In this document: one piece after another, positions 13,202-23,352 of the stretch | Layout of the letters: each line of letters opens with the position of its first letter | Numbering within the stretch: the first letter of the stretch is position 1 | NCBI GenBank assembly: GCA_024654485.1 | Contig: JANLHO010000049.1 | Span: 1-32,848, forward strand | DNA length: 32,848 bases | Origin: Patescibacteria group bacterium | GTDB lineage: Bacteria; Patescibacteriota; Minisyncoccia; Phycocordibacterales; UBA2100 | Direction: 5' to 3' | Notes under the pieces: model-generated | The model's database searches: none | The model's input: only the letters and a program-made list of their open reading frames with translations | Told to the model about the DNA's origin: nothing | Program-made: the position numbers and the translations under genes

Positions 13202-14932
13202 ATGAGACAAGGGCGCGGAAGCAGTGTGGTGCACGAGATAGCGCCGGATGAAATATTCCTTGATTCCTCCAACTTGCCGGGACACGAGTCCAGCCAGTTT
13301 GAAGGGCGCGTCGCGAAGCCGCTTTCGCGGCGCGCGATAGTGGCTGTCGGTCTCGCATTTTTGCTCGTGGCGCTGGTGTTTGCCGGTCGCGCATTCAGTC
13401 TGCAGATAGTACGAGGCTCCCAGCTCGCGGACGCGTCGCGCTTCAATACGCTGAGCCGTACTATAATTTTCTCTTCGCGCGGCGTTATCTACGACAGGAC
13501 CGGTCGCGAGCTCGCGTGGAATGAGCCGCAACAACAGGCGGTTGCGGATGCGATATCAACTACCGATAAAGGAGAAGCAACGTCCCTCTACGCGCTGCGC
13601 CGCTATGCATCCGCTTCGGGTCTTTCGCACGTCTTGGGATTCGTGCAGTATCCGAAGGCGGATTCGCAGGGCAATTGGTGGCGAACCGAATACGCCCCCA
13701 TTTCCGGGGTTGAGCTTGCTTTCAACGATACGCTTGCGGGCGCGAATGGGAGCACTATGGTGGAGCGTGATGCGCACGGAAATGTTGAGAGAGAAGATAT
13801 CGTCGCCCGCCCTAAGAACGGAGAGCCTCTCACGCTCTCCATAGATGCCGACGTGCAAAGCAAGCTGTACGAAGTCCTTTTTGCTCACGCGAGTGAGCAG
13901 GGATTTGACGGCGGCGCGGCCGTCATCATGGATGTGCGGACGGGAGAGATCCTGGCACTCACGAGTTTCCCCGAGTACGACAATCAGGCATTCACCGACG
14001 GCAACGCGTCCGTAGTGCGGGCCGAGACATCCGACGCCTCCACTCCGCTTCTGGACCGTGCCGTCTCGGGTCTCTACACTCCCGGCTCTATCGTGAAGCC
14101 CATCTTTGCCGCAGCCGCGCTGAACGAGGGGATAATCTCGCCCGATAAAGACATTGTCTCTACCGGAGCGATAAGCATTCCCAATCCGTATGATCCGGAC
14201 AACCCGACCCTCTTTCGCGACTGGACGGTGCACGGCCCCGTCAATATGCGCGAGGCAATCGCGGTGTCCAGCGACGAATACTTTTACACCATAGGCGGCG
14301 GATACGAAGGCCAGCAGGGCTTGGGCATCGCGCGTCTGGATGAGTATGCGAAGCTATTCGGACTCGGAGAGCACACCGGTATAGAACTTTCTGGCGAGCA
14401 GTCAGGCGTTATACCCACGCCGGAGTGGAAAGCTATCACTTTTGGCGAGGACGATCCGTGGCGCATAGGAAATACGTACCATACCGCCATCGGCCAGTAC
14501 GGCTTTCAGATAACGCCGATACAGGCCGCCGTTTTTGCTGCCGCGATAGGGAATGGCGGAAAGCTGCTCAAGCCGCAGCTTGTGGCTTCCTCAACGCCGC
14601 AATTCAGGGATGTCGGCGTGCCCGACAAGTATCTACAGGTAGCGCGCGAGGGAATGCGTCTTGCCGTCACATCGGACCGCACCGATGCCACCGTAAAGTT
14701 CTTCAATATGTCGGGCATAGAGCTGGCGGCGAAAACAGGTACGGCGCAGCTGGGCCTGCACAACGAATGGATGAACTCGTGGTCTATCGGGTTCTGGCCC
14801 GCGAGTGATCCGAAGTACGCATACGCTGTGGTTCTGGAGCACGCGCCCGCAGGCACGCTCTCCGGAGCCGCGCCCGGAATGCTGCCTTTTTTCCGCTGGC
14901 TAATAGCCGCTCACCCTGAGTACGTAAAGTAG
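13202..14932 (+). CDS. mrdA: penicillin-binding protein 2 (class B transpeptidase)
   Basis: RGVIYDRTG, GSIVK (SxxK), SSD (SxN variant), KTGTAQ; single N-terminal TM. Start chosen 6 nt after TATAGT. Confidence 0.9.
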   Translation: MRQGRGSSVVHEIAPDEIFLDSSNLPGHESSQFEGRVAKPLSRRAIVAVGLAFLLVALVFAGRAFSLQIVRGSQLADASRFNTLSRTIIFSSRGVIYDRTGRELAWNEPQQQAVADAISTTDKGEATSLYALRRYASASGLSHVLGFVQYPKADSQGNWWRTEYAPISGVELAFNDTLAGANGSTMVERDAHGNVEREDIVARPKNGEPLTLSIDADVQSKLYEVLFAHASEQGFDGGAAVIMDVRTGEILALTSFPEYDNQAFTDGNASVVRAETSDASTPLLDRAVSGLYTPGSIVKPIFAAAALNEGIISPDKDIVSTGAISIPNPYDPDNPTLFRDWTVHGPVNMREAIAVSSDEYFYTIGGGYEGQQGLGIARLDEYAKLFGLGEHTGIELSGEQSGVIPTPEWKAITFGEDDPWRIGNTYHTAIGQYGFQITPIQAAVFAAAIGNGGKLLKPQLVASSTPQFRDVGVPDKYLQVAREGMRLAVTSDRTDATVKFFNMSGIELAAKTGTAQLGLHNEWMNSWSIGFWPASDPKYAYAVVLEHAPAGTLSGAAPGMLPFFRWLIAAHPEYVK

Positions 14933-16688: not shown

Positions 16689-17717
16689 ATGGATATAAAA
16701 ACACTGAAGAAGACGGCCGGCCAAATGGTCGCCAAGGGGAAGGGTATAATAGCGGCCGACGAGAGCGCAGGGACATGCCAGAAGAGATTTGATTCGGTGG
16801 GGGTGCCGTGCACGGAGGACAACCGTCGCGCCTATCGGGAGACCATAATCGCCGCGCCGGGACTTGAGGAGTATGTGAGCGGCATAATTCTATTTGATGA
16901 GACCATCCGACAGGAAACAACCGACGGCGAACGTTTCTCCGACGTGCTAGCAAAGAAGGGCATACTGCCGGGCATCAAGGTGGACATGGGCGCGAAGGAG
17001 CTTGCGCTTCACGCCGGTGAAAAGGTTACGGAAGGACTGGACGGCCTTCGCGAACGCCTCGCGGAGTACAAGACATTTGGCACGATGTTTGCCAAGTGGC
17101 GCGCCGTCATCACGATAGGAGAGGGTATACCCTCCGATGCCTGTATCCACGCCAACGCGCACGCAATGGCTCGCTACGCCGCGCTTTGTCAGGAGGCCGA
17201 TATCGTACCCATAGTGGAGCCGGAAGTTTTGATAGAAGGCGACCACACGATAGAGCAATGCTATGAGGCCAGCGTCGCCGCGCTCAAAAAGACATTTGAA
17301 GAGCTCGCAGGTCAGGATGTCGCTCTGGAAGGCACTATCCTGAAAGCGAGCATGGTCATAGCCGGCAAGAAGGCCGCGAAGCAATCAAGCGTGGAGGAGG
17401 TCGCGAGCGAGACGCTGCGCTGCCTCAAAGAGAGCCTGCCCTCCGCGCTCGCGGGGGTAGTCTTCCTCTCCGGCGGACAGAGCGACGAGCAAGCCACCGC
17501 GCACCTGAGCGCGATGAATGCCGGAGGCAAGCATCCGTGGCCGCTTTCTTTCTCTTACGCTCGCGCGATACAAAGCCCCGTCCTGAAGATTTGGGCCGAG
17601 AATCCCAACGCCAATGTGGAAAAGGCGCGCGAAGCTCTCCTCTTCCGTTCGCGCATGAACTCGCTCGCGACCATGGGCAAATACTCGGAAGAGATGGAAA
17701 AAGAAAGGCCGTACTAA
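16689..17717 (+). CDS. class I fructose-bisphosphate aldolase (eukaryote-like 'glycolytic' family)
   Basis: GKGIIAADES, GIKVD.G, AKWR, VPIVEPE, FLSGGQS, PWPLSFSYARA. Confidence 0.95.
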   Translation: MDIKTLKKTAGQMVAKGKGIIAADESAGTCQKRFDSVGVPCTEDNRRAYRETIIAAPGLEEYVSGIILFDETIRQETTDGERFSDVLAKKGILPGIKVDMGAKELALHAGEKVTEGLDGLRERLAEYKTFGTMFAKWRAVITIGEGIPSDACIHANAHAMARYAALCQEADIVPIVEPEVLIEGDHTIEQCYEASVAALKKTFEELAGQDVALEGTILKASMVIAGKKAAKQSSVEEVASETLRCLKESLPSALAGVVFLSGGQSDEQATAHLSAMNAGGKHPWPLSFSYARAIQSPVLKIWAENPNANVEKAREALLFRSRMNSLATMGKYSEEMEKERPY

Positions 17718-17752
17718 ACCGCGCAGCAAGTTGCAAAGTTTGGCCTGACCAT

Positions 17753-18814
17753 ATGAGCGAAAAACTAAAACCATCTCAAGTAGCAGCCAGACGCGGTCAG
17801 GAGCAATTACGCACAGTCGGGGAATTCACACCTCCTCCGGGGTGGTTTGCAGATGATTTCACGCAGTACGCTCGCGAAGATTCCGCAGAATATGGAAATC
17901 TTTTTCGCGGTGCTCTCTCACTTTATAAGAATGCGGAACAAGCTCGTGAAGCTGTTCAGAATACCCTCGCAAGGGCATGGGAATCCCATGGGCAATTCAA
18001 GCAAGGCTCCCACATGGCAGCCTGGCTATATACAATCCTACGCAACAACTTCCTAGACGAGAAAAGACGCGAGAAGACCGCCGCTTTATACAACACGCTG
18101 GAGAATAATCTTATGGGGGAGCATGGCGCGCTAGAATCTACGCCCGAGGAAGCAGTGTACGCAAAACAGATAGCAGAGCAAATTGACAAGTTGCCGCCCG
18201 ACATGAGAGCTGCTGTTCTTGCAGTGCATCGTTCGGGCTCATTTAAAGATGCCGCCAAAGAGACAGGGATGTCGCCGGAAAGAATCCGCGAGCTGCTTGA
18301 AATAACGAAGGGCATCATAACGAGTCGGGATGGTGAGGGCGATAGAATAGAAATCCAGCGCCCACCAGATAAGAAAAAGTTTGAAGATTTCATGTCAAGA
18401 CAGGACATTGAAAGATACCTTCCGCGCCTTCAGCAAAAATCAAGAGATGCATACACAAAAGTAGTGTTGGAGGGTAAGACATATAGTAATGCGACGAAAG
18501 AGCTTGGAATTTCCGAAGGCACTCTCAAATCACGTCTCTTTCGCGCCAGACAAAAATTATCGGAGTTAACGGGCGTGCTTATTGACGCTGTAACAAAAGA
18601 AAGCAGCTTACGCTCGTGGTACGAAGCTCGTCCCGAGTCATTTCGCAATGCTATAAAAAGATCAGGCCTGTCGCCTCGCCAGACTGATGTAATAAATCTT
18701 ATTATGGAAGGAAATGGCTCTGCTGAAATAGCAGACAAGCTAGGCGTAAAACTATTATCTGCGCGATCATATATTCAGCACGTGTACGACAAAATCTCCC
18801 CCCATCTTGAGTGA
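17753..18814 (+). CDS. ECF-like sigma-70 factor with sigma2, two sigma4-like HTHs and a LuxR-like HTH
   Basis: sigma2 AREAVQNTLARAW...WLYTILRNNFLD; sigma4a IDKLPPDMRAAVL...SFKDAAKETGMS; sigma4b EGKTYSNATKELGISEGTLKSRLFRARQKL; LuxR-like LSPRQTDVINLIMEG.GSAEIADKLG...VYDKI. Confidence 0.75.
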   Translation: MSEKLKPSQVAARRGQEQLRTVGEFTPPPGWFADDFTQYAREDSAEYGNLFRGALSLYKNAEQAREAVQNTLARAWESHGQFKQGSHMAAWLYTILRNNFLDEKRREKTAALYNTLENNLMGEHGALESTPEEAVYAKQIAEQIDKLPPDMRAAVLAVHRSGSFKDAAKETGMSPERIRELLEITKGIITSRDGEGDRIEIQRPPDKKKFEDFMSRQDIERYLPRLQQKSRDAYTKVVLEGKTYSNATKELGISEGTLKSRLFRARQKLSELTGVLIDAVTKESSLRSWYEARPESFRNAIKRSGLSPRQTDVINLIMEGNGSAEIADKLGVKLLSARSYIQHVYDKISPHLE

Positions 18815-18840
18815 TTTCACAAAAAGATCCGCTATCGCGG

Positions 18841-18911
18841 TGGACTTACCGGGAATCGAACCCGGGACTCGGCAATGCGAATGCCGCGTAATGCCACTTT
18901 ACTATAAGCCC
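18841..18911 (-). tRNA. tRNA-Ala(CGC)
   Basis: Acceptor GGGCTTA/TAAGTCC with G3:U70, anticodon arm CGGCA-TTCGCAT-TGCCG, T-loop GGTTCGATT. Confidence 0.93.
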
Positions 18912-18956
18912 TAGTGAGGAACGAAAATGGAAGCTTGCTTTCATTTTCTCCGAACG
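18912..18956 (-). repeat. 45-bp tRNA-abutting element, copy 1
   Basis: CGTTCGGAGAAAATGAAAGCAAGCTTCCATTTTCGTTCCTCACTA; 44/45 identical to 20110-20154; ends exactly at tRNA base 1. Confidence 0.9.
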
Positions 18957-19018
18957 ACGGGTTTATATCGTGAGATATAAGCCCGTGCGCAGAAATATAC
19001 CAGATACGGGAGCCGCGC

Positions 19019-19489
19019 TCAATTGATGAGCCAGATGTGGAGATTGAGATAGCCGGCAAATAGTATCCATGCGAGGTACGGCATTAGGAGATAGGCGGCG
19101 CGACGGTCTACCTCAAACGCGCCGATGATGAGCGAGAGTATTATGAATGCGAGGAAGAGGATGGCTATGAATGCGATAAATACCGCGTGAAGCGAGAAGA
19201 AGAAAAGCGTCCACGCCGCGTTGAAAAGGAGCTGGACGAAGTAGAAGCGCACCCAGCCCTCCACATGCGGCTCAAACGGCCTGTGATTCCATACGATAGA
19301 AAGGGCCATCGCCATGAGCGCATAGAGGATTAGCCACACCAGAGAAAATGCGGCATCCGGCGGCGTAAGCGAGGGCTTCACGAGCTGCGAGTACCATGAG
19401 CCGGCCTGCGTGTCTATGAGGAGATAGCCGATGAACCCTGCAGTATATGTGGCGACAAACGCTACTGCAGTCCGCGTCGTCGCCTTCAT
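19019..19489 (-). CDS. tspO: TspO/MBR tryptophan-rich sensory protein
   Basis: WYSQLVKPSLTPP..AF..VW.ILY.LM, QLLFNAAWT.FFF, LLMPYLAW..FA..LN. Confidence 0.93.
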   Translation of the reverse strand: MKATTRTAVAFVATYTAGFIGYLLIDTQAGSWYSQLVKPSLTPPDAAFSLVWLILYALMAMALSIVWNHRPFEPHVEGWVRFYFVQLLFNAAWTLFFFSLHAVFIAFIAILFLAFIILSLIIGAFEVDRRAAYLLMPYLAWILFAGYLNLHIWLIN

Positions 19490-19596
19490 GTCTTAAGCAT
19501 ATTTCACCGGAGAGGCAAAAATCGCGTTATCCACAGATGCCAAATCGGCGCATAGCGGCTTCCCAGCACGCGATAAATAGATTATCCTGCTCGGAC

Positions 19597-19670
19597 GCAC
19601 CCTTAGCTCAGTTGGTTAGAGCGTTCGATTCACATTCGAAAGGTCTCAGGTTCAAATCCTGAAGGGTGCA
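19597..19670 (+). tRNA. tRNA-Val(CAC)
   Basis: Acceptor GCACCCT/AGGGTGC, D arm TAGCTCAGTTGGTTAGAGC, anticodon arm TTCGA-TTCACAT-TCGAA, T-loop GGTTCAAAT. Confidence 0.92.
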
Positions 19671-19752
19671 CCCGCCTTCGCCGTTTTCGGCGGAGTGCGG
19701 CGCGAGTCCACCATTTGGCCGGTAGTGCGCACGCCGGTTTCGGAGGCTCTGT

Positions 19753-19815
19753 CGGGCTGTAGTATACCTCGGTAGCACAACGCTTCGCGTTGGCTACGGG
19801 GCAAGCCGGTAGTAC
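19753..19815 (+). pseudogene. 5' fragment of a tRNA-Pro(GGG)-like gene, interrupted in the D-loop by a palindrome
   Basis: CGGGCTGTAGTATACC (identical to 20155-20170), insertion, then CCGGTAGTAC. Confidence 0.8.
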
Positions 19816-19851
19816 TTTACAAGACGTGGCGTGAGTGGGGGGTTCTTTTGC

Positions 19852-19922
19852 CGGGGTGTAGTATACCGGTAGTACGCACGCTTCGGGTGCGTGTAGACCG
19901 GGTTCGATTCCCGGCACCCCGA
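19852..19922 (+). tRNA. tRNA-Pro(CGG)
   Basis: Acceptor CGGGGTG/CACCCCG, anticodon arm CACGC-TTCGGGT-GCGTG, T-loop GGTTCGATT. Confidence 0.93.
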
Positions 19923-19966
19923 CAAAAGAACCCCGCTATCGTGCGTACAGTCTTCAGTAGTACAGA

Positions 19967-20027
19967 GGGTTCGACCTGTGCTCCGTAGGCAAACGAAGTT
20001 TGTCCTTCGGGGTTCCCGGCAGCCCGA
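19967..20027 (+). pseudogene. 3' fragment of a tRNA-Pro(GGG)-like gene, interrupted in the T-loop by a palindrome
   Basis: GGGTTCGA, 38-nt insertion (19975-20012), then TTCCCGGCAGCCCGA (identical to 20211-20225). Confidence 0.8.
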
Positions 20028-20109
20028 CAGAGCCTCTGAGAAAGTATTTATGCGGTGCAGAATCATTTTCGTTCCTCACTACGGGCTGTAAGCAAGCTTT
20101 CAGCCCGGG

Positions 20110-20154
20110 CGTTCGGAGAAAATGAAAGCAAGCTTCCATTTTCGCTCCTCACTA
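20110..20154 (+). repeat. 45-bp tRNA-abutting element, copy 2 (partial third copy at 20064-20081)
   Basis: 44/45 identical to the reverse complement of 18912-18956; ends exactly at base 1 of tRNA-Pro(GGG). Confidence 0.9.
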
Positions 20155-20225
20155 CGGGCTGTAGTATACCGGTAGTACGCACGCATGGGGTGCGTGTAGA
20201 CCGGGTTCGATTCCCGGCAGCCCGA
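20155..20225 (+). tRNA. tRNA-Pro(GGG)
   Basis: Acceptor CGGGCTG/CAGCCCG, anticodon arm CACGC-ATGGGGT-GCGTG, T-loop GGTTCGATT. Confidence 0.93.
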
Positions 20226-20261
20226 ATCAAAATCGGCATTTGCAGTGCACCAGGTGCTATA

Positions 20262-20296
20262 CCCCACACCAGCTTTGCCGCAAAGTTGGTGTGGGG
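20262..20296. repeat. REP-like palindrome CCCCACACCAGCTTTGC-C-GCAAAGTTGGTGTGGGG
   Basis: 16/17 complementary arms; similar to 5629-5658; abuts the TATACT box upstream of prs. Confidence 0.75.
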
Positions 20297-20311
20297 GTAT
20301 ACTGGGCTCTC

Positions 20312-21283
20312 ATGGAGTACAAGATATTCAGCCTCGGCTCCAACGACAGCCTCGCGCAGAGGATATCCGACAAGTTGGAGCTTCCCCTGGGGAAGGTAAA
20401 ATGCCGCTCATTCTCCGACGGCGAGCAGCAGGTGCAATTCTTGGAAAATCTGCGGGGCAAGAGCATCTTCCTCGTCCAATCCACCAATCCTCCCGCCGAG
20501 AACTGGGTCCGGCTTCTTCTCGCGATAGACGCTGCGCGCGGAGCTTCGGCGCGAGAGATCACGGTCGTCGCACCATACTTCGGATATTCGCGGCAGGACC
20601 GCAAATCGCGCCCGCGCGAGCCTATCTCGGCGCGCGTCTTCGCGACGACGCTTGAGAGCCTCGGCGCCACTCGCTTCCTAACGATGGATCTGCACAACGA
20701 CGCCATCGGCGGATTTTTCCGCAAGACCATCGTAGACAATCTCTACGCGCGCCGCGACTTCATCGGACATTTTCGCGAGGTCTTCAAGGAAGCGCTTGAT
20801 GGGGACGACCTCGTAGTCGTCTCACCGGATGCCGGAGGCGTGGTACGCGCGCAATCATACGCCAAGCGACTCATGCGCTCGGCCGACCTAGCCATCATCC
20901 ATAAGCAGCGCGAGGTCCCGAATCAGGTCGCCAGCATGAAGCTCATCGGCGACGTCAAAGGCAAGGTCGCGCTCATCGTGGACGATATGGCCGACACGTG
21001 CGGGACGCTCGCGCGCGCGGCGGAGCTCTTGCAGGAGAATGGAGCGCGCGAGGTGTATGCCGCCGCGACGCACGGCCTGCTCTCCGGCGACGCGCTCGCT
21101 ACGATAGGGAACTCTCCGATCAAGAAACTTTTCATCACAGACACCATCTCCACCGACCGCGAGCTCGGCGACAAGGTAGAGGTCGTCTCGGTGGGGGAGA
21201 CTTTCGGCGATGCCATTGATCGCATAGAAACGGGAGAGAGCCTAAGCGCCCTCTTCCAGACCGACGAGGACGACGAGAAGTAA
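20312..21283 (+). CDS. prs: ribose-phosphate pyrophosphokinase
   Basis: FSDGE, PYFGYSRQDRK, MDLH, VSPDAGGV.RA, IVDDMADTCGTL, ATHG. Confidence 0.97.
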   Translation: MEYKIFSLGSNDSLAQRISDKLELPLGKVKCRSFSDGEQQVQFLENLRGKSIFLVQSTNPPAENWVRLLLAIDAARGASAREITVVAPYFGYSRQDRKSRPREPISARVFATTLESLGATRFLTMDLHNDAIGGFFRKTIVDNLYARRDFIGHFREVFKEALDGDDLVVVSPDAGGVVRAQSYAKRLMRSADLAIIHKQREVPNQVASMKLIGDVKGKVALIVDDMADTCGTLARAAELLQENGAREVYAAATHGLLSGDALATIGNSPIKKLFITDTISTDRELGDKVEVVSVGETFGDAIDRIETGESLSALFQTDEDDEK

Positions 21284-21322
21284 TCTCGAACAAATCCGAA
21301 ATACGGTGTATCCTTGAAGCGC

Positions 21323-21394
21323 GCCTCCATCGTTCAACGGATAGGACGCGAGCTTCCGGAGCTCGTAATGTGGGTTCGATTCCTGCTGGAGGCA
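21323..21394 (+). tRNA. tRNA-Arg(CCG)
   Basis: Acceptor GCCTCCA/TGGAGGC, anticodon arm CGAGC-TTCCGGA-GCTCG, T-loop GGTTCGATT. Confidence 0.93.
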
Positions 21395-21417
21395 CAAGAT
21401 ATCGTTTGCCTCTGCTG

Positions 21418-21442
21418 GCTACAAGCTGTAAGCTACAAGCTA
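21418..21442 (+). repeat. heptamer tandem array GCTACAA/GCTGTAA
   Basis: GCTACAA GCTGTAA GCTACAA GCTA, just before the tRNA-Ala pseudo-copy. Confidence 0.7.
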
Positions 21443-21447
21443 TCCTA

Positions 21448-21559
21448 GGGCCTATAGTATAGCGGTACCCGCCCGAACGACTGACGTCGTTCAGTCGGGC
21501 GGGGAACGCCTCCACCCGCCCGAACGTACCGTTCGGTACGGGCGGGTGGCATGGTGGAG
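21448..21559 (+). pseudogene. duplicate of the 5' 44 nt of tRNA-Ala(GGC), interrupted by two palindromic insertions
   Basis: GGGCCTATAGTATAGCGGTA [36 nt, 21468-21503] GAACGCCTCCA [32 nt, 21515-21546] TGGCATGGTGGAG. With the insertions removed it is 43/44 identical to 21796-21839. Confidence 0.9.
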
Positions 21560-21562
21560 CCT

Positions 21563-21805
21563 ATGGTATACACAGTCTACGTCTTGAAGGACGATCTAAA
21601 CAGGTTGTATAAGGGTATGACGAAGAATCTCTCTGGCCGTATCGCTCAACACAAGAATGGCCATACGATAACCACAGCAAAAATGAAGAATTTGCGCGTT
21701 GCATATACCGAGGAATTTGATAACTTTGAGGGCGCAAGGAAGCGCGAATTGTATTTCAAATCTGCAGCGGGCAGGCGTTTTCTGAAGAAAAAACTGGGCC
21801 TATAG
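21563..21805 (+). CDS. stand-alone GIY-YIG nuclease (UPF0213/YhbQ-like), 80 aa
   Basis: YTVYVL...LYKGMTKNL..RIAQHKNG...T.K...YTEEF....ARKRELYFKS..GR. The stop codon lies inside the downstream tRNA. Confidence 0.92.
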   Translation: MVYTVYVLKDDLNRLYKGMTKNLSGRIAQHKNGHTITTAKMKNLRVAYTEEFDNFEGARKRELYFKSAAGRRFLKKKLGL

Positions 21806-21866
21806 TATAGCGGTAGAACGCCTCCATGGCATGGAGGAGGTCGGGGTTCGACTCCCCGTAGGTCCA
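21796..21866 (+). tRNA. tRNA-Ala(GGC)
   Basis: Acceptor GGGCCTA/TAGGTCC with G3:U70, anticodon arm CCTCC-ATGGCAT-GGAGG, T-loop GGTTCGACT. Confidence 0.93.
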
Positions 21867-22194
21867 CAAAAATAAGGAGAACATCCCGAAGCGATTAATC
21901 TTCGCACGCGGCGCGTGCGTGGTGGCTTTGTACTCTGCCTCACGATTCGACTTCGTGCCGACTCTCTCGGGCGCGCGAGTACGCCACGCCCTCGGCCCCC
22001 GCCCCGCCGCCAATCCTCTCCGCCAAAGGCGGACAGGCATTCTCATCTATTTCGCGGGGGGATTTGAAAAAAGGAATGGGCGGCAGGAGGCAGGGTCGGC
22101 TTCCATTCTCGAAAATTAAATTCTAGATTCGGTGTCTAACACGGGGCCCACTATTAGTGACGAATGTGATATATAAAGTATAATGACACCCCAT

Positions 22195-23352
22195 ATGGAA
22201 GCAACAATTAAAAAAATGTTACTGCACGCAGGGATAGAGGTTGGCGGCAAAAAACGAGGGGATATCACGGTGCATAACCCCCGATTTTATTCTCGAATTT
22301 TAAAAAATGGCACTTTGGGTATTGGAGAGTCATATATGGACGGGGATTGGGACTCTAATGATTTGACTGAAACGGCCAATAAAGCATTCAAGGTGAATCT
22401 TAGAAGATCTCTTGCTAGTTTTTCGTTAAAAGATGCTTTCCATGTTGCGCACTCGTATCTTACCAATTTGCAAACTAAAAAACGCTCCTACGACGTTGGA
22501 GAAGAACATTACGATGTTGGAAATGATCTGTATGAAGCGATGCTCGGCAAGAGCATGGCATACACCTGCGCATACTGGAGGAATGGCGCCAAGACTCTCG
22601 ATGAAGCACAAAACGCAAAGTTCGATCTCGTATGCAGAAAAGTCGGCTTAAAAAGCGGCGACTCTATACTTGATCTTGGCTGCGGCTTCGGAAGTTTTCT
22701 CAGATACGCTGCAGAAAAATATGGAGTGAGTGGTCTTGGCGTAACAGTGTCAAAAGAGCAGGCGCGGTTCGCGAATGAACGGAACAAAGACCTTCCCGTC
22801 CAAGTCTTGGTACAGGATTATCGAGATCCAATACTCGATGATGCAGGCAACACACGCGTGTTTGACCACGTTATTTCTATTGGGCTATGTGAACACGTTG
22901 GACCGAGGAATTATCGGACTCTTATGCAAGTGGTTGACCGGCATCTCAAGCCGGGTGGATTACTCTTACTCCACACGATAGGTCAGCCAAAATCGATTAG
23001 AGCAAATGACGCGTGGACACATAAGTATATTTTCCCTAATTCTCAAGCTCCATCGCTTGCGCAAATTGCAAGATCTGCAGAGAAGATTTTCAACATTGAA
23101 GATGTTCACACATTTGGAACTGACTATGAGCCGACCGTACTCGCATGGTACAAAAACTTTTCCGATGCGTGGCCAATGCTTAAGGAAATCAAAAAACCCG
23201 ACGGCACACCTCGCTACACCGAAAGATTCCGAAGGATGTGGGAATTTTATTTACTATGTGGAGCCGGACTTTCGCGTTCGCAAAAATCATCCTTATGGCA
23301 GATTGTTTTCTCACGAGGAGACATTGCGGGTGGCTACCGATCTATTAGATAA
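22195..23352 (+). CDS. cfa: cyclopropane-fatty-acyl-phospholipid synthase
   Basis: LGIGESYMDGDW, HYDVGNDLY..ML...MAYTCAYW, LDLGCGFG, EHVG..NY, KYIFPN, RMWEFYL. Start is 22183 or 22195. Confidence 0.93.
   Translation: MEATIKKMLLHAGIEVGGKKRGDITVHNPRFYSRILKNGTLGIGESYMDGDWDSNDLTETANKAFKVNLRRSLASFSLKDAFHVAHSYLTNLQTKKRSYDVGEEHYDVGNDLYEAMLGKSMAYTCAYWRNGAKTLDEAQNAKFDLVCRKVGLKSGDSILDLGCGFGSFLRYAAEKYGVSGLGVTVSKEQARFANERNKDLPVQVLVQDYRDPILDDAGNTRVFDHVISIGLCEHVGPRNYRTLMQVVDRHLKPGGLLLLHTIGQPKSIRANDAWTHKYIFPNSQAPSLAQIARSAEKIFNIEDVHTFGTDYEPTVLAWYKNFSDAWPMLKEIKKPDGTPRYTERFRRMWEFYLLCGAGLSRSQKSSLWQIVFSRGDIAGGYRSIR

Follow-up and report, generated by a model that had tools for sequence, protein, structure and literature searches.

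Several described systems share features with the element reported here. In common with REP/REPIN sequences and their RAYT genes it has short imperfect extragenic palindromes with conserved unpaired bases, a very variable copy number, paired or tandem arrangements and Y1_Tnp genes in the same genomes. It resembles the Correia (NEMIS) elements, MITEs of Neisseria of about 75-100 nt, in size, target duplication, intergenic, promoter-proximal position and the potential for co-transcription as a hairpin and for recreating promoter boxes at the junction. The ends of IS200/IS605 elements present a subterminal imperfect hairpin, a fixed 3' junction, strand specificity and a short pairing between 5' foot and junction that includes one non-canonical pair, traits which recur in our element. 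The intervening sequences of 23S rRNA are likewise self-contained extended hairpins within a stable-RNA gene, sporadic among related genomes, and integrative elements that target tRNA genes likewise bring their own copy of the interrupted tRNA segment, leave the gene intact and lie between flanking direct repeats.

The window, that is, the whole stretch of DNA analysed, comprises 32,848 nucleotides from a Patescibacteria group bacterium (assembly GCA_024654485.1, contig JANLHO010000049.1), in which a preliminary description had pointed to one 45-mer lying before two different tRNA genes. Both copies are present, at 18912-18956 on the minus strand (one mismatch) and at 20110-20154 on the plus strand (no mismatches), identical in 44 of 45 positions, and in 100 shuffles the 45-mer was never matched. 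With the tRNA limits given by ARAGORN and Rfam, each copy ends at base -1 of its tRNA, as claimed. The target-specific hairpins described upstream of the Ala copy (18959-18984) and the Pro copy (20082-20107) are confirmed, and the 18-nt partial copy ahead of the latter is real, with one mismatch. In what follows x denotes the tRNA's own 5' bases, x_up the upstream copy of tRNA nt 1-8/9, x' the inverted copy and L the linker between x_up and x'. The two units are composed as follows.

18839..18911, minus strand: tRNA-Ala(CGC), base 1 at 18911, by ARAGORN and Rfam
18912..18958, minus strand: conserved core of the Ala unit, consisting of 5' flank, 11-bp hairpin and 13-nt tail
18959..18967, minus strand: x' of the Ala unit, inverted copy of tRNA-Ala nt 1-9
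18968..18975, minus strand: linker L of the Ala unit, the loop of hairpin 1
18976..18984, minus strand: x_up of the Ala unit, direct copy of tRNA-Ala nt 1-9, the duplication proper being nt 1-8
18994..18999, minus strand: -10-like box TATATT of the Ala unit, 9 nt upstream of x_up
20064..20081, plus strand: partial copy in the Pro unit, 3' arm of the hairpin and tail, preceding x_up
20082..20090, plus strand: x_up of the Pro unit, direct copy of tRNA-Pro nt 1-9
20091..20100, plus strand: linker L of the Pro unit, a mini-palindrome of the type AAGC-NN(N)-GCTT
20101..20107, plus strand: x' of the Pro unit, inverted copy of tRNA-Pro nt 1-7
20108..20154, plus strand: conserved core of the Pro unit, 5' flank, hairpin and tail
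20155..20225, plus strand: tRNA-Pro(GGG), base 1 at 20155, by ARAGORN and Rfam

The covariance model R1 matches the Ala unit at 18903-18970 (80.5 bits) and the Pro unit at 20096-20163 (83 bits). A third, diverged copy adjoins tRNA-Lys(CTT) in the same genome (G000:C59, about 14450-14519, minus strand) and has a target-matched hairpin too. All three copies of G000 adjoin a tRNA, are confined to contigs C59 and C60, and follow a common order: -10 box, x_up, linker, x', imperfect hairpin, 12-13-nt tail, base 1. The 45-mer is the conserved core of small hairpin elements whose family is apparently undescribed. As a repeat it stands, but the conserved unit is slightly longer, its 5' flank beginning 2-3 nt earlier; the 5' and 3' flanks pair with each other, and between the final 4 nt of the tail and 4 nt of the 5' foot there are three co-varying pairs and one constant T.C mismatch. 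The distance from hairpin to junction is fixed at 12-13 nt on the 3' side, and each copy amounts to a block of about 75 nt made of L, x', the core with its 5' flank and tail, and the direct copy x. A direct duplication of 9 bp had been proposed; it has to be shortened to 8 nt (tRNA nt 1-8), because the base after x_up is still A in six tRNAs in which nt 9 is C or G. In the Ala unit x' has an A opposite C4 of the tRNA, a single C.A mismatch at tRNA position 4. The idea of a constant module with a variable arm complementary to its target is correct and generalises to other genomes: the arms match the target in 19 of 19 tRNA-abutting copies among related loci, in all eight tRNA-abutting copies of genome G122 and, read by eye, in 10 of 10 from a sample of the order. 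Every copy inspected has one and the same orientation relative to its tRNA or -10 box.

The element duplicates 8 bp of sites that are single-copy in orthologues, amplifies in tandem and decays to remnants. A copy in the rplU promoter of G122 is bounded by a perfect 8-bp direct repeat (8/8), which is present once in the orthologous promoters of G001, G011 and G033. Among 25 orthologous tRNA-Ala(CGC) loci 11 are filled, 13 are empty and one holds a tail-only remnant, and other genomes contain perfect tandem units of the form x-[L-x'-core-x]-[L-x'-core-x]. Promoter spacing gives a further signature. The -10 box stands 9 nt before x_up in the Ala and Lys units; in the ordinary tRNA genes of G000, where a box was found in 23 of 41, its distance to base 1 has a median of 10 nt and lies at 6-11 nt in 20 of the 23. 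Directly before base 1 of tRNA-Ala no -10 box was found. It is x_up that occupies the place which base 1 normally takes relative to the box. Of three readings offered earlier (an element with its own guide, a target duplication plus an inverted copy, a leader that competes with the acceptor stem) the second fits best, because x_up stands at the normal spacing of base 1 and the rplU repeat is 8 bp long against single-copy orthologues. The repeated insertion that had been read from the 18-nt partial copy is not needed, since slippage between the flanking 8-bp repeats would give tandem units, and the fragment is probably the remnant of such a unit.

On balance, if not by much, we favour an insertion element of a strand-specific, REP/MITE-like type, which would duplicate 8 bp, carry its target in inverted copy, restore the tRNA and be transcribed as a leader that can be removed. 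Insertion of the block after U8 of a tRNA gene would give the series promoter, x_up, L, x', core, x and rest of the tRNA, so that the core would end flush with base 1, an intact tRNA gene would be regenerated downstream, and an orphan first 8 nt of the tRNA would be left beside the promoter. Insertion after TATA of a -10 box would give two usable -10 boxes. In a tRNA gene, transcription from the promoter that precedes x_up would make the block a pre-tRNA leader, in which x_up may pair with x' to form hairpin 1, so that the anti-acceptor arm would leave the tRNA free; RNase P, the RNA of which occurs in G000, would then cut at the downstream copy and render the insertion harmless. Slippage between two x copies would yield the tandem units and could also lead to a clean deletion of the block. 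Such a design would be self-repairing, in that the downstream tRNA is intact, the anti-acceptor arm can be neutralised by the element itself and the flanking repeats allow clean loss.

How far does the element reach beyond this genome? Searched with a covariance model of the hairpin and flank-matched arms, the family is found in 98 of 116 genomes of the genus, with about 470 matches (0-26 per genome); in a sample of 151 genomes from the order it is found in 66, which represent 60 of 131 genera. It is thus widespread in this Saccharibacteria-labelled order of the candidate phyla radiation. Its units recur with the same architecture at many different tRNAs and promoters. About one third of copies lie flush with base 1 of a tRNA (17 of 50 loci retrieved by a 22-nt pattern, 8 of 26 among all model matches in G122, 10 of 30 loci in other genera), and the tRNAs concerned represent at least 17 anticodons: Ala CGC, GGC and TGC; Pro GGG and CGG; Lys CTT and TTT; Arg TCG, CCT, CCG, GCG and TCT; Thr GGT; Ile GAT; Phe GAA; Asp GTC; Met CAT; and Trp CCA. 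Most of the copies not at tRNAs lie in -10 boxes (TATA|AT), where the arms match that flank instead. Many copies thus lie away from tRNAs, yet every inspected copy has arms matching its own flank, and all inspected copies are intergenic or adjoin tRNAs. Host genomes of less than 1 Mb leave little room for selfish DNA, and the family is nonetheless found in at least 60 genera, at sites that are the most constrained ones, the first bases of tRNAs and the -10 boxes of promoters.

The extended stem x'-core-x is strongly supported by covariation. We find 87.8% of its cells paired against 70.8% in shuffles, none of 500 shuffles reaching the observed value, and slid controls pair at 38-49%; double changes occur in 23 of 27 pairs. 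Orthologous copies away from tRNAs, in which x is free of tRNA constraint, co-vary as well; GCCACGATA, GCCATGATA and GCCGCGATA, for example, each have a matching x'. The invariant bases are the unpaired ones, and they are invariant across more than 60 genera. These properties bear on the view that the unit is a double-stranded DNA operator or promoter module, whose 22-bp palindrome would bind a dimeric regulator or provide -35 or UP function. Its 10-2-10 layout recalls CRP/FNR-type sites, and in promoter-type copies the -10 hexamer begins, by eye, 17-18 nt past the hairpin. However, stem sequences are fully changed between orthologues and still complementary, different variants stand side by side in one genome, the complementarity runs on into the variable flanks, and tRNA-type copies lie downstream of their promoter. 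We consider this module very improbable.

The same covariation raises the question of a host function. Orthologous copies are kept across species with compensatory changes, also in genomes in which no Y1 match is found; this points to selection on the structure and therefore possibly to a role for the host, and it counts against an insertion element. In this view x'-core-x could be a conserved RNA structure in 5' leaders, those of tRNAs and of some mRNAs, which a host RNase, for instance RNase III, or an RNA-binding protein would recognise, with x_up:x', x':x and the acceptor stem acting as an attenuator-like switch that gates 5' maturation, and the duplication explaining only its origin. The promoter upstream of x_up and the constant co-direction with the downstream tRNA or gene are as expected for such a leader. 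In two Ala copies x_up now has T4, which pairs with the A of x' whereas the tRNA retains C4, and in some Ala copies the loop of hairpin 1 is complementary to the tail, by eye, with one compensatory change and G.U pairs. Computed folds of 10 loci add that two alternative structures differ by 0-3.3 kcal/mol, and in these computations the mutually exclusive pairings of an attenuator, 1:2, 2:3 and 3:4, have counterparts in x_up:x', x':x and x pairing with the tRNA 3' strand. The notion of an anti-acceptor arm that competes with the acceptor stem, raised in the preliminary description, agrees with these predicted energies, to which its support is confined. Yet G.U pairs are no commoner than A.C (10 versus 11 in the hairpin, 16 versus 15 in the flank helices, without excess on either strand), which is unusual for an RNA under selection; a range of 0-26 copies, tandems, tail-only remnants and 13 empty sites among 25 Ala loci have the look of a repeat that the host can do without; many copies precede the -10 box that they abut and hence lie outside the transcript of that gene; and no Rfam family matches. 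A host leader seems to us unlikely; if the hairpin is a host signal, then tRNA 5' maturation or promoter control in the candidate phyla radiation would have a layer that has so far gone unrecognised.

The computed folds also bear on the possibility that x_up is itself the functional acceptor strand and the rod an intervening hairpin placed between nt 8 and 9 of the tRNA, tolerated or cut out by analogy with the 23S rRNA intervening sequences removed by RNase III. The normal distance of x_up from the promoter would suit such a rod, as would the outer stem x':x kept by covariation, and in 7 of 10 loci the predicted minimum-energy fold joins x_up to the tRNA 3' strand, leaving the rod to project as a closed hairpin. 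Against this, the differences between folds are small (0-3.3 kcal/mol), and co-transcriptional folding should favour hairpin 1. The arrangement would mean a tRNA that either bears a 75-nt arm at its tertiary core or is split after nt 8, nothing found here points to a bacterial pathway for tRNA splicing or ligation, and the intact downstream copy makes a simple RNase P route sufficient. We regard an intervening hairpin as quite improbable. The 23S intervening sequences differ further from our element, which sits in tRNA genes and promoters and carries a replacement 5' end, so that no fragmentation is needed.

Which protein might move such a hairpin? Under the insertion element that we favour, the extended asymmetric hairpin would be recognised by a trans-acting protein. 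The G.U and A.C counts give no clear answer on the strand of action; since G.U is not favoured on either strand, the form read by the protein would probably be single-stranded DNA. Searches for Y1, TnpB, IS256, ISL3, rve and reverse transcriptase tied no transposase or nuclease to the element. Y1/RAYT-like genes occur in 108 of 116 genomes of the genus, in up to 15 copies per genome, and G000 encodes two Y1_Tnp proteins of 221-222 aa, neither of whose genes has an element copy nearby. A Y1 gene lies near the element in only one of 26 element loci with flanks of about 1.5 kb, and the co-contig Y1-element pairs listed are all more than 1 kb apart. Across the order Y1 is found in 45 of 66 genomes with the element and in 42 of 85 without (odds ratio 2.2, p = 0.03), a weak association; 21 of the 66, one of them with 12 copies, have no Y1 match. 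By adjacency and co-occurrence a Y1/RAYT link is thus weak and not required. Among the five copy-richest genomes an IS256-type gene is found in one, ISL3 in none, rve in none and reverse transcriptase in two, so that none of these gene types is common to all five. One of four reverse transcriptase loci has a copy nearby (G030), a proximity explained by the position of that copy in the promoter of the following SET-domain gene; the three others have none.

These results weigh on a guide-carrying single-strand element of IS200/IS605 or REP type, moved in trans by Y1 (HUH) proteins. Its x' would pair both with the target x, as the left cleavage site, and with the element's right end x, and excision would reseal the tRNA gene. 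The imperfect hairpin with invariant unpaired bases, the junction fixed 12-13 nt to its 3' side, the 4-nt pairing of tail and foot with its constant T.C mismatch, the strict orientation and the lack of G.U bias all speak for such a guide, as do the two Y1_Tnp proteins of G000, the expansion of their family in the genus and the weakly positive co-occurrence. However, the element does not flank the Y1 genes, no Y1 match is found in 21 of the 66 genomes with the element, each new target would require a new guide and a new right end simultaneously, and the G000 proteins score 39 and 31 bits with the NCBIfam model REP_Tyr_transpos, far under its cut-off of 80. The 8-bp duplication and variable arms also stand against IS200/IS605 elements, which are not known to duplicate their target and whose 4-nt guides are constant. 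Taken together, Y1-driven movement of this kind appears improbable.

Comparison with the systems named at the outset sharpens what is distinctive. A RAYT gene is flanked by its own REPs, which the Y1 genes here are not, and REPs are not known to have an outer stem derived from the flank, an 8-bp duplication or a position flush with base 1 of a tRNA. The 8-nt direct repeats (8/8 at rplU) are the target-site duplication expected of a MITE, but the termini vary: after the direct repeat come a variable linker and an x' specific to the target, one arm repeats the target in inverted form, the orientation relative to the target is single, and no parent insertion sequence was found in the five copy-richest genomes. 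From IS200/IS605 elements and the elements derived from them (PATE) it differs by its 8-bp duplication, site-specific arms of 7-9 nt and single hairpin, by the absence of an adjacent TnpA and, in G000, by the absence of a detectable TnpB. Unlike tRNA-targeting integrative elements it is about 75 nt long, has no integrase, sits at the 5' end, repeats 8 nt from base 1 and holds an inverted copy.

How does a hairpin come to carry both copies of its target? We know of no transposition chemistry that yields a direct and an inverted target copy together, a point against the insertion element. For the favoured insertion element we suggest, tentatively, as a reasonable possibility that falls short of an even chance, a new kind of strand-specific mobile hairpin, one that uses its target to write a part of its own sequence. 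x' would arise during insertion, for instance through snap-back (hairpin-primed) copying of a single-stranded overhang of 8 nt, the palindromic core priming the synthesis that creates x' and the second x, so that every copy would gain a site-specific outer stem and regenerate the gene it enters. Close to this lies the alternative that x' serves as a programmable guide and is used again to reach new targets. Copying of the arms from the target at insertion would be a mechanism that, to our knowledge, has not been described for any insertion sequence or MITE, and the snap-back scheme, if true, would explain how bacteria with tiny genomes tolerate insertions in tRNA genes and -10 boxes.

Other identities were considered and set aside. 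TIGR-Tas arrays place box C and box D between two spacers of 8-12 nt, next to a Tas (Nop-domain) gene (PMC12045711); the core here is a Watson-Crick hairpin in which no box C/D motifs are seen by eye. With Rfam 15 the window region 17000-23000 gave only tRNA matches (E<=1), and 20 related non-tRNA loci gave none but tRNAs at the gathering score. Small self-cleaving ribozymes cutting at base 1 find no support in Rfam, nor is a hammerhead core of the familiar consensus visible by eye. A retron ncRNA, suggested by the a1/a2-like arms and a bulged G, was rejected since no reverse transcriptase stands beside the copies, and integron attC and dif/Xer sites, as usually defined, do not fit outer boxes that vary by site. 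ARAGORN, with introns allowed, reports no outer tRNA at 19650-20300 of the kind an archaeal-type bulge-helix-bulge intron would give. Full-text literature yielded no description of such an element; the main text of a 2024 MITE survey, whose supplement could list it, has no occurrence of Patescibacteria or Saccharibacteria (PMC11602168). No public sequencing run contains the locus, the best share of its words being 0.09, and contigs of one RNA, two possible RNA and one DNA run (85% likeness) covered tRNA bodies alone, from other organisms.

For annotation, the copies of tRNA 5' ends and the pseudo-tRNA fragments near tRNA clusters in these genomes stem from the element, and the covariance model offers a handle for locating it in cultured Saccharibacteria. 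The linker seen in the Pro unit is not peculiar to it, as the AAGC-NN(N)-GCTT type recurs in many copies.

The element represents a genuine and apparently undescribed family that extends across the order. In the window the same 45-mer occurs at 18912-18956 (minus strand) and 20110-20154 (plus strand), with 44/45 bases identical and no match in 100 dinucleotide shuffles. ARAGORN and Rfam place tRNA-Ala(CGC) at 18839-18911 (minus) and tRNA-Pro(GGG) at 20155-20225 (plus), so that both 45-mers end at base -1. The target-specific hairpins upstream of the two copies are found as the preliminary description had them, and the 18-nt partial copy that it placed before the Pro hairpin is present at 20064-20081. 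The window is contig C60 of the source assembly (819,577 bp, 60 contigs, 56% G+C), which has 44 tRNA genes. Inspection of the 110 nt before each of these reveals a third, diverged copy before tRNA-Lys(CTT) on contig C59, whose hairpin is likewise built from the first 8 nt of that tRNA and an inverted copy; a search with the 26-nt core, allowing up to six substitutions, found none in this genome beyond these three. Being nearly identical, 1.2 kb apart and in opposite orientation, the two window copies might allow the segment between them to undergo gene conversion or inversion; a TspO/MBR family membrane protein gene lies in it (19019-19489, minus). On the other side of tRNA-Ala(CGC), a 425-aa ORF with sigma-70 regions 2 and 4 and a C-terminal GerE/LuxR helix-turn-helix (17537-18814, plus) ends on the opposite strand 25 nt from the 3' end of the tRNA.

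Every tRNA-abutting copy follows one order of parts, given here 5' to 3' on the tRNA strand:

-10-like box
spacer of 6-19 nt
x_up, a direct copy of tRNA nt 1-8, often 1-9
linker L
x', an inverted copy of tRNA nt 1-7 to 1-9
a single bulged base
5' flank (TCGCTCGGAGA type)
hairpin, about 11 bp
12-13-nt tail (...TCCTCGCTA type)
tRNA base 1

Both x_up and x' are present in 19/19 tRNA-abutting copies analysed, each with at most two mismatches in seven. Often the linker forms a mini-palindrome (AAGC-NN(N)-GCTT type) resembling the tip of the main hairpin. Since the base following x_up is A even in six tRNAs that have C or G at nt 9, the direct duplication is 8 nt long.

A search among 101 relatives with a 22-nt pattern, allowing up to two mismatches, matched 41 genomes, namely the source genome, 35 of 60 other genus genomes and 5 from other families of the order. 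Among the 50 loci fetched, 17 are flush with tRNA base 1, and three (L001-L003), in which the flank motifs are missing, appear to be matches by chance. Forty-four aligned units (alignment A1) served to build a covariance model, R1, which at E<=0.001 detects the unit in 98 of 116 genus genomes (about 470 matches, 0-26 per genome) and in 66 of 151 genomes, representing 60/131 genera, in an even draw from the order. We inspected all 26 matches in genome G122: 8 are flush with tRNAs called by ARAGORN, 2 more lie at tRNA-like 5' ends, and most of the remainder adjoin N5-6 TATA followed by AT or GT, which are -10 boxes belonging to protein genes or to a tRNA-Val promoter. In loci from other genera, chosen as best matches and tandem pairs rather than at random, 10/30 are flush with tRNAs. 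Across all sets the tRNAs abutted are Ala (CGC, GGC, TGC), Pro (GGG, CGG), Lys (CTT, TTT), Arg (TCG, CCT, CCG, GCG, TCT), Thr (GGT), Ile (GAT), Phe (GAA), Asp (GTC), Met (CAT) and Trp (CCA). The earlier expectation that copies abut tRNA 5' ends and carry a matched hairpin therefore holds in part: many copies are at tRNAs, all with the matched hairpin, and many others lie away from tRNAs, yet their arms match their own flank. Copies at L137 (G098:C40) and L090 (G122:C1) are followed by degenerate tRNA 5' fragments, and x_up of L137 runs through about 38 nt of a tRNA-Arg; these two loci associate the element with pseudo-tRNA fragments.

The structure written on A1 has 27 pairs:

x' with x (the direct copy adjoining the 3' end of the core), 9 pairs
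5' foot with the last tail bases, 3 pairs
a 4-bp helix, GGAG/CTCC, GGGA/TCCC or GGGG/CCCC
an 11-bp hairpin

Standard pairs fill 87.8% of 1180 cells as against 70.8% with partners shuffled (0/500 shuffles reach the observed value) and 38-49% with the partner slid by 1-3 columns, controls that overstate significance because the structure comes from these same, mutually related sequences. Changes on both sides are seen in 23/27 pairs; the hairpin stem is wholly replaced between orthologous Ala copies with pairing kept, and in orthologous copies upstream of tuf, where x belongs to no tRNA, x and x' still co-vary. The invariant or near-invariant columns are the unpaired ones, namely the two facing TC pairs of bases of a 2x2 internal loop and, two bases ahead of the junction, a C.T mismatch. 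Among non-Watson-Crick cells, read on the tRNA strand, G.T shows no excess over A.C, with 10 vs 11 in the hairpin, 16 vs 15 in the flank helices and 7 vs 29 in x':x, the surplus of A.C in x':x being due to an A of x' opposite C4 in Ala, Lys and two Arg lineages, a mismatch that would read G.T on the opposite strand. This pattern does not look like that of a typical selected RNA helix and is what one would expect of a hairpin recognised in DNA form, or on both strands. By eye, in Ala (CGC/GGC) units of other genomes (L012, L065, L066, L074, L063, L079) 8-10 nt in the loop of hairpin 1 (x_up:x') are complementary to the part of the tail adjoining base 1, a possible pseudoknot, with one compensatory change (L074) and G.U pairs (L063); the same inspection finds it absent from the window's Ala copy.

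What would such a leader do in a transcript? Folds computed from x_up to the tRNA 3' end for 10 units (L021 was left out, as a simple rule missed its diverged x_up) give two nearly isoenergetic structures, 0-3.3 kcal/mol apart. One combines hairpin 1, the core hairpin and a normal cloverleaf; in the other, which is the minimum-energy structure in 7/10 units, x_up is paired to the 3' strand of the tRNA, and x'-core-x protrudes between nt 8 and 9 as a closed rod. When x_up is omitted from the fold, the 5' strand of the tRNA is captured by the leader in 5/10. In two Ala copies T4 of x_up pairs with the A of x', and the tRNA keeps C4. In the proposed model, hairpin 1 would form first during transcription, the tRNA would fold normally, and RNase P, whose RNA is found in the genome (106 bits), would then take off the entire leader.

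That the block arose by insertion, with an 8-bp duplication plus an inverted copy, is well supported. Ordinary tRNA genes of the source genome have a TAnnnT box 4-30 nt upstream in 23/41 cases (median 10 nt), and in the Ala and Lys units the box lies 9 nt before x_up, with none directly before the tRNA; x_up thus stands where base 1 normally would, and this spacing supports insertion. The tRNA-Pro unit, located downstream of other tRNAs, is without such a box. At the L21 gene promoter of G122 a perfect 8-bp direct repeat flanks a block containing the inverted copy, and the orthologous promoters in G001, G011 and G033 have a single copy of that sequence directly before the gene, although the upstream region differs between genomes, so that this is not a clean filled/empty pair. 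Among tRNA-Ala(CGC) sites in 25 genomes, 11 are filled, 1 retains the tail only, and the other 13 have an ordinary promoter and no element; a tRNA-Pro(GGG) is likewise preceded by a remnant consisting of the tail alone. The wide difference in copy number between genomes points the same way. Identical or nearly identical tandem units, x-[L-x'-core-x]-[L-x'-core-x], occur in several genera, and a tRNA-Asp of G122 has a complete extra core before x_up. Slippage between the 8-bp repeats would give tandem units and would also delete the block precisely. The simplest account of the 18-nt partial copy at the Pro locus of the window is a tandem unit that has been truncated. All copies inspected have the tail towards the tRNA or -10 box and none is reversed, which argues for a strand-specific process or for selection.

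As candidate trans-acting factors, the source genome encodes two Y1_Tnp-domain (HUH) proteins of 221-222 aa, with 30.3 and 24.8 bits (cut-off 23), an H-hydrophobic-H motif in both, and a weak match to the NCBIfam REP-associated tyrosine transposase model:

G000:C28:10026-10688, minus strand, Y1_Tnp gene
G000:C55 (L053:388-1056), plus strand, Y1_Tnp gene

Relatives are found in 108/116 genus genomes, these genomes of <1 Mb having up to 15 diverged copies each, and in 87/151 of the order sample. Only 1/26 element loci has a Y1 gene beside it. Co-occurrence in the order sample is weak (45/66 element-bearing genomes vs 42/85 others, odds ratio 2.2, p = 0.03), and 21 element-bearing genomes are without a Y1 match. 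TnpB, searched in the source genome, and IS256, ISL3, rve and reverse transcriptase, searched in the five genomes richest in copies, show no consistent partnership with the element.

Like REPs and MITEs, the element is a small, repeated, extragenic, imperfect palindrome of variable copy number, and with IS200/IS605 ends it shares a fixed hairpin-to-junction distance and foot:tail pairing. It fails defining features of each of these families. No described element is known to us in which the outer stem repeats, in inverted form, the element's own target duplication, and a literature search covering the main text of articles found no description of the present one.

The neighbouring tRNA-Pro(CGG) of the window (19852-19923) has a leader (19837-19850) complementary to its trailer (19923-19934), of the type ...GTTCTTTTG [tRNA] CAAAAGAAC..., lengthening the acceptor stem by about 12 bp. 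The same arrangement with other sequences surrounds tRNA-Pro(CGG) in many genus genomes, possibly as a stem used in processing a polycistronic Val-Pro-Pro transcript. Two segments, 19742-19768 and 20010-20037, bracket this tRNA: the former holds nt 1-16 of a tRNA-Pro (19753-19768), the latter a tRNA-Pro-like 3' end (20010-20027), and these two pieces are in turn flanked by an 11-bp inverted repeat. No outer tRNA is called by ARAGORN when introns are permitted. In L057, L064, L068 and L069, too, an inner tRNA-Pro lies between tRNA-Pro halves that are split or interrupted, and the bracketing pieces may represent either a gene that has been disrupted or an uncommon nested layout.
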